This document shows positions 1,081 to 59,585 of a DNA stretch of 64,000 nt, piece after piece (the first letter of the stretch is position 1; each line of letters begins with the position of its first letter). The stretch lies in NCBI RefSeq assembly GCF_003334335.1, contig NZ_QOWQ01000012.1; one strand, given 5' to 3'. A program made the translations under genes and the position numbers. The notes below the pieces were generated by a model. It was not told the DNA's origin, ran no database searches, and saw only the letters and a list, made by a program, of their open reading frames with translations. This stretch comes from Escherichia coli (GTDB lineage Bacteria; Pseudomonadota; Gammaproteobacteria; Enterobacterales; Enterobacteriaceae).

Positions 1081-3526
<2,446 letters not shown>

Positions 3527-3567
3527 TGACCTCTGTACTTATAACAACAACGTAAGGTTATTGCGCT

Positions 3568-57505: not shown

Positions 57506-58315
57506 TCACCCCTGCAATATTTTGTCCATCACGCGCCCCGGCAGCAGGCGCTTAAGCACCATTACCGCCCAGGTCACCAGCGTCACCGGATAGCGCATCT
57601 TCGGCTTCTCGCTAATAAAAGCATGGCGTACTTTGTCCACCACCGCTTCCGGTCCCAACGTAAAGCGGGCGGCGATGCCGGGATTTTCGACTGGTTTATC
57701 ACTTTGCGTCTGGTTGACGTTGTCGGTGAAGCGAGTACGAATGGGACCGGGTTCGATCAGGCTGACTTTAATTCCGCTGTGGCGCAGCTCCATGCGCAGT
57801 GCGTCTGACCACGCCTCCAGCGCATATTTACTGGCCGCGTAAGCGCCACGACCCGGCGTGGAGATTAATCCCATCACCGATGATGTCATCACAATACGCC
57901 CTTCACCGTGCGGTAACATCGCGGGTAACAGGCGCATGGTGAGCTGGTGTGCGCCGAAAAAGTTGGCGGAAAACTGCTGTTCCATCTGCGCACGGCTGAT
58001 GGTGGAAAGGGGGCCATACATGCCGAATCCGGCATTGTTAAAGATCCCATACAGACAATTATCGGTCAGGGCGATCACCTCGTCGGCTGCGCGATCAACA
58101 CTTTCTGGTGAATCCAGATCGATCAACACGCCGGTAAATCCCATGCTGTTCATGCGCTCAACATCATCCGGTTTCCGGCAACCTGCCAGCACATGAAAAC
58201 CCTGGCGTTTTAATTCGAGCGCGCTTTCCAGGCCAATTCCACTGGAACATCCGGTAATTAAGACCGATTTTTGCATAACTTTACCTGTCAGGATCTCCGT
58301 TGCTTTATGAGTCAT
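57506..58315 (-). CDS. ybbO: Short-chain dehydrogenase/reductase YbbO
   Basis: 269 aa; SDR cofactor motif TGCSSGIG and catalytic YxxxK (YAASKYALEAW). Confidence 0.85.
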   Translation of the reverse strand: MTHKATEILTGKVMQKSVLITGCSSGIGLESALELKRQGFHVLAGCRKPDDVERMNSMGFTGVLIDLDSPESVDRAADEVIALTDNCLYGIFNNAGFGMYGPLSTISRAQMEQQFSANFFGAHQLTMRLLPAMLPHGEGRIVMTSSVMGLISTPGRGAYAASKYALEAWSDALRMELRHSGIKVSLIEPGPIRTRFTDNVNQTQSDKPVENPGIAARFTLGPEAVVDKVRHAFISEKPKMRYPVTLVTWAVMVLKRLLPGRVMDKILQG

Positions 58316-58931
58316 GATTTACTAAAGGCTGCAACTGCTTCGCCATCCAGTCGGCAATAAACGGCTGGGCGTCGCGGTTGGGATGAATACCGTCATCCTG
58401 CATCCATTGTGGCTTGAGGTAGACCTCTTCCATAAAAAAGGGCAGCAGCGGAACATCAAACTCTTTGGCGAGTTTGGGGTAAATGGCGCTAAAGGCTTCA
58501 TTATAACGGCGACCATAGTTTGCAGGCAGACGTATTTGCATTAACAATGGTTCAGCGTTGGCGGCTTTGACATCCTGCAAAATCTGGCGCAGCGTTTGCT
58601 CGGTTTGCTGTGGCTGAAAACCACGCAAACCGTCATTGCCGCCCAGTTCAACCAGCACCCAACGCGGCTGATGCTGTTTCAGCAGAGCCGGAAGGCGCGC
58701 CAGTCCTTGTTGCGAGGTGTCGCCGCTGATGCTGGCATTAACTACCGACGTTTTACTCTGCCACTTATCATTCAACAAGGCAGGCCAGGCCGCGCTAGCA
58801 GACATTCGATACCCGGCGCTCAGGCTATCACCCAGAATCAATAACGTGTCCGCTGCGGCGGCACGGAAGGTTAACAGGACCAGGAACAGGAAGGGCAAAT
58901 GCCAGCGGAAAACATTGTTGAAGTTCATCAT
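58305..58931 (-). CDS. tesA: Periplasmic SGNH/GDSL multifunctional acyl-CoA thioesterase I / lysophospholipase L1
   Basis: Track ORF 218 aa; ATG at 58931 gives 208 aa MMNFNNVFRWHLPFLFLVLLTFRAAAADTLLILGDSLSAGY (signal peptide + GDSL motif). Confidence 0.9.
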   Translation of the reverse strand: MMNFNNVFRWHLPFLFLVLLTFRAAAADTLLILGDSLSAGYRMSASAAWPALLNDKWQSKTSVVNASISGDTSQQGLARLPALLKQHQPRWVLVELGGNDGLRGFQPQQTEQTLRQILQDVKAANAEPLLMQIRLPANYGRRYNEAFSAIYPKLAKEFDVPLLPFFMEEVYLKPQWMQDDGIHPNRDAQPFIADWMAKQLQPLVNHDS

Positions 58932-59585
58932 CTTAAGAAGTCCGTCGGTCAGGGGGAGCATGAACTCTCCATCCTCACCGGAGTTGAGCTGGTTGTCAAA
59001 CGTGGCGAGACCATCGCACTGGTGGGCGAGTCGGGATCGGGTAAGTCAACCTTGCTGGCGATCCTCGCCGGGCTTGATGACGGCAGCAGTGGCGAAGTGA
59101 GTCTGGTGGGACAACCGCTACATAATATGGACGAAGAAGCGCGGGCAAAGTTGCGCGCGAAGCACGTCGGCTTTGTTTTTCAGTCATTTATGTTAATTCC
59201 TACCCTTAACGCGCTGGAAAACGTCGAGCTTCCGGCTCTGCTGCGCGGTGAGAGTAGCGCGGAAAGTCGTAACGGGGCGAAAGCGTTGCTCGAACAGTTA
59301 GGGCTGGGTAAACGTCTGGATCATCTTCCGGCACAGCTTTCCGGCGGTGAACAGCAACGAGTGGCGCTGGCACGAGCCTTTAATGGTCGACCTGATGTGC
59401 TGTTTGCCGACGAACCCACCGGCAACCTTGACCGCCAGACGGGCGATAAAATTGCCGACCTGCTGTTTTCCCTCAACCGTGAACATGGCACCACGTTGAT
59501 TATGGTGACCCACGACCTGCAACTGGCGGCACGCTGCGACCGCTGCTTACGGCTGGTGAACGGGCAGTTGCAGGAGGAAGCATGA
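58899..59585 (+). CDS. ybbA: ABC transporter ATP-binding protein YbbA
   Basis: 228 aa; MPAENIVEVHHLKKSVGQGEHELSILTGVELVVKRGETIALVGESGSGKST, signature LSGGEQQR; 5' end overlaps the divergent tesA 5' end. Confidence 0.85.
   Translation: MPAENIVEVHHLKKSVGQGEHELSILTGVELVVKRGETIALVGESGSGKSTLLAILAGLDDGSSGEVSLVGQPLHNMDEEARAKLRAKHVGFVFQSFMLIPTLNALENVELPALLRGESSAESRNGAKALLEQLGLGKRLDHLPAQLSGGEQQRVALARAFNGRPDVLFADEPTGNLDRQTGDKIADLLFSLNREHGTTLIMVTHDLQLAARCDRCLRLVNGQLQEEA

Follow-up and report, generated by a model that had tools for sequence, protein, structure and literature searches.

A conserved head-to-head overlap of the tesA and ybbA coding sequences in Escherichia coli and other Enterobacterales

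An overlap at the 5' coding ends of two divergent genes

The divergent genes tesA and ybbA of Escherichia coli share their first codons. In the window, which is the whole 64-kb stretch of DNA that was analysed, the two coding sequences overlap head-to-head across 33 nt on opposite strands (58899..58931), or across 30 nt with 58928 as the tesA start. We consider this to be, with high probability, a genuine and conserved overlap of genes whose products work together. A 33-nt overlap of the 5' ends had been claimed in an earlier note made from the sequence of this DNA, and it is borne out by the sequence itself, by the reference annotation NC_000913.3 (tesA 519139..519765(-), ybbA 519733..520419(+), giving the identical 33-nt overlap) and by 17 of 17 Enterobacterales loci, 16 of which have an overlap of 30-33 nt, with one of 39 nt in an uncultured lineage. 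The RefSeq PGAP annotation yields a 30-nt overlap. Under the best-supported starts, tesA and ybbA are a genuine divergent pair with shared 5' nucleotides.

The same note stated that the 33 bp encode the N-terminus of the TesA signal peptide on one strand and that of YbbA on the other, and this reading was correct: ybbA codons 1-11 (MPAENIVEVHH) exactly face tesA codons 11-1 (MMNFNNVFRWH). The overlap is in phase 123:321 (1:3, 2:2, 3:1), codon opposite codon. Ten other divergent pairs of coding sequences lie in the same 64 kb according to the K-12 annotation, with 69-300 nt between their starts, and tesA/ybbA is the sole overlapping one. The pair represents a rare, well-supported head-to-head overlap in a model organism, with products that form one machine.

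The locus and the two gene products

The segment 58200..59700 of the window was found in 5419 of 5426 complete E. coli genomes, and E. coli K-12 is 99.9% identical to it. The genes present are ybbO and tesA on the minus strand and ybbA and ybbP on the plus strand. The tesA coding sequence (58305..58931, minus strand; 208 aa from ATG 58931) specifies thioesterase I / protease I / lysophospholipase L1, a periplasmic SGNH/GDSL hydrolase, and the residues that mark this family (G34 D35 S36, G97 N99 D100, D180 H183) are invariant among 32 relatives. Its presequence, MMNFNNVFRWH-LPFLFLVLLTF-RAAA, is a cleavable signal of the Sec type, with n-, h- and c-regions and an AxA end. The signal peptide comprises residues 1-26 and the mature protein begins with ADTLL, from which point (residue 37 of the 218-aa ORF) its sequence is the same as that of PDB 1IVN/9GE8_T.

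The ybbA coding sequence (58899..59585, plus strand) specifies the 228-aa ATP-binding subunit of the type VII ABC transporter YbbAP. The protein is a 100% match to YbbA of PDB 9GE6-9GE8 (9GE6_B), aligns with LolD and MacB at E-values of 1e-54 and carries the Walker A motif GESGSGKST; it belongs to the type VII (MacB-like) ABC ATPases, with ybbP directly downstream in an ATGA overlap. The cryo-EM structures 9GE6-9GE8 reveal a YbbA2:YbbP:TesA complex (2:1:1), in which TesA is bound to YbbA2-YbbP on its periplasmic side (PLoS Biol 2025, PMC12646458).

The start codon of ybbA

The plus-strand ORF opens at ATG 58899. An in-frame TAA (58872..58874, plus strand) is located 9 codons before this ATG and there is no start codon in between, so that a start further upstream is impossible. 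It had been proposed to check whether ybbA might instead be initiated at a downstream in-frame codon ahead of the Walker A motif. The sole other in-frame start in that interval is a GTG one codon ahead of the motif, which is not usable, and ATG 58899 therefore stands. A downstream start is also contradicted by the ABC fold, which begins at residues 4-10: the structures of LolD, MacB, MJ0796 and BceA all align from YbbA residue 4-10, and the conserved fold therefore begins almost at the YbbA Met. Judged by sequence, fold and conservation, ATG 58899 is the only feasible start of ybbA.

The Shine-Dalgarno sequence of ybbA, AGGAAGGG (58888..58895, plus strand), is antisense to tesA codons 13-15 (Pro13-Phe14-Leu15), which encode part of the hydrophobic core of the signal peptide. 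The ybbA ATG with a Shine-Dalgarno sequence of the AGGA type is kept in every Enterobacterales locus examined. Furthermore, the TTCCT complement of this element is kept in 16 of 16 aligned Enterobacterales sequences, and the dual use of the DNA therefore reaches beyond the 33 shared coding bases.

Dual-coding constraint in the shared codons

Variation at third codon positions was measured as entropy. Among 16 Enterobacterales sequences, which are phylogenetically related, the third-position entropy of ybbA is 0.32 in codons 2-11 versus 0.94 in later codons (p=0.0013), and that of tesA is 0.37 versus 1.22 (p=0.002). The step falls exactly at the boundary of codons 11 and 12 in both genes, which argues that selection acts on both frames within the shared codons but not outside them. 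In Vibrio, where the two starts share a CATG, the corresponding ybbA values are 0.98 and 1.01 (p>0.2), and in Pseudomonas, where a 10-nt gap separates the genes, they are 0.55 and 0.64 (p>0.2). Hence, the shared stretch carries the footprint of purifying selection on both frames. The constrained evolution expected in the earlier note can thus be measured: third-position variation collapses in exactly the 11 shared codons and does not do so in Vibrio or Pseudomonas, where the long overlap is absent.

The start codon of tesA

The minus-strand ORF of tesA (58305..58961) offers four in-frame candidates, an ATG at 58961, 58931 or 58928 and the TTG at 58898. NC_000913.3 and GenBank start the gene at 58931 (208 aa), and RefSeq PGAP at 58928 (207 aa). 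Comparison of the loci supports translation from ATG 58931, ATG 58928 or both as the probable mode of initiation. The N-terminus (M)MNF[NK]xVFRWH is conserved in relatives, and an ATG is present at tesA codon 1 or 2 in 17 of 17 Enterobacterales loci, a conservation that is confounded with that of the YbbA His codons on the opposite strand. The two ATGs are nowhere lost together: three genera have kept only the second (YbbA His11 -> Arg), and three Photorhabdus species only the first (YbbA His10 -> Gln).

The overlap might instead be an artefact of annotation, with TesA starting at TTG 58898 and the coding sequences abutting without overlap. This TTG (TesA Leu12; 58896..58898, minus strand) is the only tesA start that avoids the overlap, and some pipelines have chosen it: 194- and 197-aa models (MPFLF.../MAFLF...) are found in public databases for Salmonella arizonae, Kosakonia and Klebsiella, and Klebsiella KPN_00472 is annotated at 594 nt. 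In surveys, long divergent overlaps usually prove to be 5'-extension errors (PMC2478687). There is, moreover, no strong Shine-Dalgarno sequence ahead of 58931, and the tesA and ybbA starts simply abut in many other Gammaproteobacteria.

The Leu12 codon, however, lacks conservation: Citrobacter werkmanii has TGG, Serratia and Rahnella have CTT or CTC, Acerihabitans has TTT, and Photorhabdus and Providencia have TTA; GTG is also among the substitutes in other genera. A start at this position would leave TesA with a signal peptide of 15 residues that lacks a positively charged n-region, and all 17 Enterobacterales loci have the ATG at codon 1 or 2. The strong constraint on the ybbA third positions that face tesA codons 1-11 is confined to the clade that bears the overlap, and the upstream ATGs fall within the mapped tesA mRNA. 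Initiation of tesA below 58899 had been named as an observation that would speak against the overlap; its sole candidate is this TTG, which was rejected as a tesA start on account of its unconserved codon and poor signal peptide, and we regard an annotation artefact as extremely improbable. Pipelines that trim tesA to the TTG in order to avoid the overlap are probably wrong.

Promoters and transcripts

A strict promoter scan of the window gave no match. A relaxed sigma-70 weight matrix, calibrated over the entire 64-kb window, returned as its top match in the tesA direction (99.9986th percentile of the 64-kb placements) a sigma-70-type promoter at 58971..58999 on the minus strand, composed of a -35 element TTGACA (58999..58994), a 17-nt spacer and a -10 element GAGGAT (58976..58971). 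These elements sit within ybbA codons 25-34. Kim et al. 2012 (PMC3415461) reported a tesA transcription start site (TSS) at 519021(-), supported by 45 reads and giving a leader of 32 nt, and the sequence ahead of it is identical to this TTGACA-17-GAGGAT promoter. For ybbA, the same study lists two TSSs, 518570 and 518802, each with 2 reads, and it also gives a ybbP-associated TSS at 519490, internal to ybbA (3 reads). The published 51-mers were placed on the window by exact sequence match, which maps the tesA TSS to 58963, in ybbA codon 22, and the other three to 58512, 58744 and 59432, respectively. The last of these (plus strand) lies inside ybbA, 150 nt upstream of ybbP.

The tesA 5' UTR (58932..58963, minus strand) thus measures 32 nt and occupies ybbA codons 12-22. 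It is A/U-rich and without a strong Shine-Dalgarno sequence, and its fold is not more structured than that of shuffled sequences (z = +1.0); in the leader fold, the tesA AUGs are placed in an unpaired A/U-rich stretch. As mapped, the tesA mRNA begins 5'-UC-AUG (58959-58963, minus strand).

For ybbA, Cappable-seq adds a plus-strand TSS at 518615 (score 2.45), equivalent to window position 58557, with none nearer ybbA among the listed sites. The three weak ybbA TSSs (58512, 58557 and 58744, plus strand) are found inside tesA codons 140, 125 and 63, antisense to tesA and 155-387 nt back from the ybbA ATG, and all three coincide with weight-matrix promoter matches; the -10 elements on the ybbA side are at 58499-58504, 58543-58548 and 58733-58738. 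The SMRT-Cappable-seq and TRAINSPOTTER supplements contain no tesA or ybbA entry, nor does the N-terminomics supplement that was searched. Since the mapped sites are weakly supported, the main ybbA promoter may be elsewhere or may be condition-specific.

The earlier note had reasoned that each promoter must lie inside the coding sequence of the other gene. This holds for tesA, whose TSS and promoter occupy ybbA codons 22-34, and it agrees with the published TSS maps for ybbA, weak as these sites are, which place its starts at tesA codons 63, 125 and 140. By the TSS positions, the 5' ends of the tesA and ybbA mRNAs have at least 220 nt of complementary sequence in common. The pair therefore falls among divergent units with overlapping 5' ends, with the ybbA side defined by weakly supported sites.

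The mapped tesA TSS lies only 2 nt before another in-frame AUG, at 58959..58961 (minus strand), and this brings in a further reading, in which TesA would be made mainly from ATG 58961 on a nearly leaderless mRNA, as a 218-aa precursor, with a 63-nt overlap with ybbA. The ORF is indeed open up to 58961, 218-aa models are present in databases, and the codon is found in about two-thirds of Enterobacterales loci. Its presence, however, merely tracks a YbbA His codon: Citrobacter sp. FP75, Rahnella and Photorhabdus caribbeanensis lack the ATG, and P. cinerea has GTG in its place. The ybbA codons that face the extension (12-21) have a third-position entropy of about 0.89, compared with 0.95 further in and 0.32 in codons 2-11, and this normal value argues that the extension is not under coding selection. 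A start at 58961 would also lengthen the signal peptide to 36 residues and put an acidic residue into the n-region, and extra 5' nucleotides are known to lower leaderless initiation in E. coli. The tesA mRNA does not qualify as leaderless, as transcription starts 2 nt before AUG 58961 and this AUG is unconserved and free of coding constraint. ATG 58961 was rejected as the conserved tesA start for want of conservation and of a constraint footprint; its main use is very unlikely and its minor use possible.

Start spacing across the Gammaproteobacteria

The arrangement was followed through 80 loci of TesA relatives, ranging from Escherichia to Pseudomonas and including one betaproteobacterium. 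A ybbA homologue is located directly upstream on the opposite strand, in divergent orientation, in all 80. Start spacing was scored in 76 of them; left out were L039, in which the GDS pattern was not matched, L056, whose ybbA lies beyond the 600-nt limit that was set, and L047 and L078 (no start within the set limits). With start calls that are rule-based outside the Enterobacterales, the two starts overlap or are at most 11 nt apart in 62 of the 76 scored loci. An overlap of at least 30 nt is present in 17 loci, and a further 17 have a shared CATG (2-nt overlap), as in Vibrio, Psychromonas, Rheinheimera, Oceanisphaera, Dokdonella and others. Gaps of 0-3 nt (CATATG, CATnATG) occur in 11 loci, gaps of 10-11 nt in 17 (Pseudomonas, CATGGAGAATCCGATG), and gaps of 23-110 nt in the other 14.

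The palindromic CATG joins the two starts in several gammaproteobacterial families (L019, L016, L020, L022, L023, L025, L053, L054 and others), near locus position 3450-3530. The Pseudomonas junction is found in L042, L051, L072, L081 and 13 more loci, near locus position 3481-3510; here 16 nt hold both start codons (an ATG in the case of tesA) together with the GGAG ribosome-binding site of tesA, and the ybbA start also forms a CATG with a second in-frame ATG. The idea that both genes of the CATG-type species are transcribed without leaders was considered and rejected: promoters placed so that the TSS would fall on the ATG score barely above background, with 1 of 28 and 0 of 28 CATG-type loci exceeding the 95th percentile of the background. 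In Vibrio hannami (L024, ~2817-3484), the ybbA tblastn match is split at residue 149/150, which suggests that this ybbA is frameshifted, either as a pseudogene or through an assembly error.

The distance from the Walker A codon to the GDS codon is 193-196 nt in Enterobacterales and 194-203 nt in Vibrio, and the TesA presequence comprises 32-34 codons in the former versus 24-27 in the latter. These figures are consistent with an origin in which the tight head-to-head arrangement would be ancestral. The ancestral Gammaproteobacteria would have had abutting start codons, often in the form of CATG, and the Enterobacterales may have lengthened the n-region of the TesA signal peptide into ybbA, adding 7-8 codons to the presequence by using an ATG inside that gene. 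Such an extension would be tolerated because the n-region of a cleaved signal peptide has few sequence requirements.

Comparison with known overlaps

The overlap itself is already known, since it is annotated in NC_000913.3 and was remarked on in the 2025 YbbAP-TesA paper (PMC12646458). The K-12 genes tesA (b0494) and ybbA (b0495), whose products are part of the YbbAP-TesA complex, are the same locus with the same 33-nt overlap. That paper does not include an analysis of start codons, constraint, TSS positions or cross-taxon spacing, all of which are presented here. The additions are modest, and consist of support for the start calls, the mapped promoter inside ybbA, the dual-coding footprint and the spacing across taxa.

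Divergent overlaps are the rarest class, at about 1% of well-characterised overlaps (331 of ~15,000), as surveyed by Lillo and Krakauer 2007 (PMC2174442) and Palleja et al. 2008 (PMC2478687). In these surveys, phase 123:321 makes up 25-30% of the divergent overlaps, and misannotation is frequent, accounting for all examined cases of more than 60 bp. The tesA/ybbA pair resembles the surveyed overlaps in its shared 5' ends and its phase, and its length of less than 60 bp puts it in the range that is possibly real. Unlike the often-misannotated class, its starts are backed by conservation, by the dual-coding footprint and by a mapped TSS.

With regard to transcription, Conway et al. 2014 (PMC4161252) found overlapping 5' ends in 136 of 388 divergent operons of E. 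coli, with a mean overlap of 168 nt, and the tesA and ybbA transcripts are likewise complementary at their 5' ends. In most of the Conway cases, untranslated leaders overlap across an intergenic region, whereas here the coding sequences themselves overlap and there is no intergenic region. A certain likeness to leaderless mRNAs such as that of lambda cI may also be noted, in that the tesA mRNA starts close to an in-frame AUG; in contrast to those mRNAs, AUG 58961 is preceded by two nucleotides, and neither conservation nor coding constraint is seen for it.

Possible regulatory consequences

The arrangement can be described as follows. The first 10-11 codons of tesA and of ybbA are the reverse complement of each other, with no intergenic DNA between the genes, and because there is none, all initiation signals reside inside the partner gene. 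The Shine-Dalgarno sequence of ybbA is carried by tesA codons 13-15, and the UTR, TSS and promoter of tesA by ybbA codons 12-34. With promoters placed within the partner genes, the 5' ends of the two mRNAs are complementary. Transcriptional interference between tesA and ybbA, as raised by the earlier note, is plausible, and a regulatory outcome might take the form of promoter occlusion, polymerase collision or antisense pairing.

The overlap, or the zero-length spacer, might itself be a selected regulatory device that couples the hydrolase and the transporter or sets their ratio. Such a device could act through convergent polymerases that cross the promoters of the partner, or through base pairing between the two mRNAs, whose 5' ends are complementary. 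Divergent pairing in 80 of 80 loci and near-zero spacing in 62 of 76 would fit such selection, as would the 5' complementarity of at least 220 nt deduced from the TSS positions, the assembly of the products into a 2:1:1 complex, the 45 reads at the tesA TSS against 2 at each ybbA TSS, and the fact that divergent transcripts with overlapping 5' ends form an established class in E. coli (PMC4161252). On the other hand, ordinary spacers of 23-110 nt are present in 14 of 76 loci, so tight spacing is not obligatory; neither an operator-like inverted repeat nor an Rfam RNA family was detected at the tesA/ybbA junction; and the compaction could equally be neutral. A selected device appears to us possible, although rather unlikely.

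The broader form of this idea, in which near-zero start spacing is an ancient, selected architecture that reciprocally controls the synthesis of hydrolase and transporter, we consider unlikely, and slightly more so. Near-zero spacing is kept in about 80% of the sampled Gammaproteobacteria. If the idea were true, the spacing in each of its forms (CATG, 0-3 nt, 10 nt in Pseudomonas, 30-33 nt in enterobacteria) would force the promoters into the partner coding sequence, and reciprocal control would follow by polymerase collision, promoter occlusion or 5' antisense pairing. A new biological question would arise only if the architecture proves to be regulatory.

The overlap has practical consequences for engineering. 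Edits to the first 11 codons of tesA or ybbA also alter the partner gene, and edits to ybbA codons 12-34 also hit the signals of tesA (ribosome-binding site and promoter). Chromosomal 'leaderless tesA' deletions, as made for fatty-acid production, likewise affect ybbA.

Other overlaps in the window

At their outer ends, both genes overlap a neighbour on the same strand: the tesA stop and the ybbO start share 11 nt (58305-58315), and the ybbA stop and the ybbP start share 4 nt (ATGA, 59582-59585). These two overlaps resemble those typical of translationally coupled operon genes. Finally, hemH (plus strand) and aes (minus strand) overlap tail-to-tail by 4 nt at approximately 38180-38183 of the window (K-12 499014-499017), the only other opposite-strand overlap of coding sequences in the annotated stretch.
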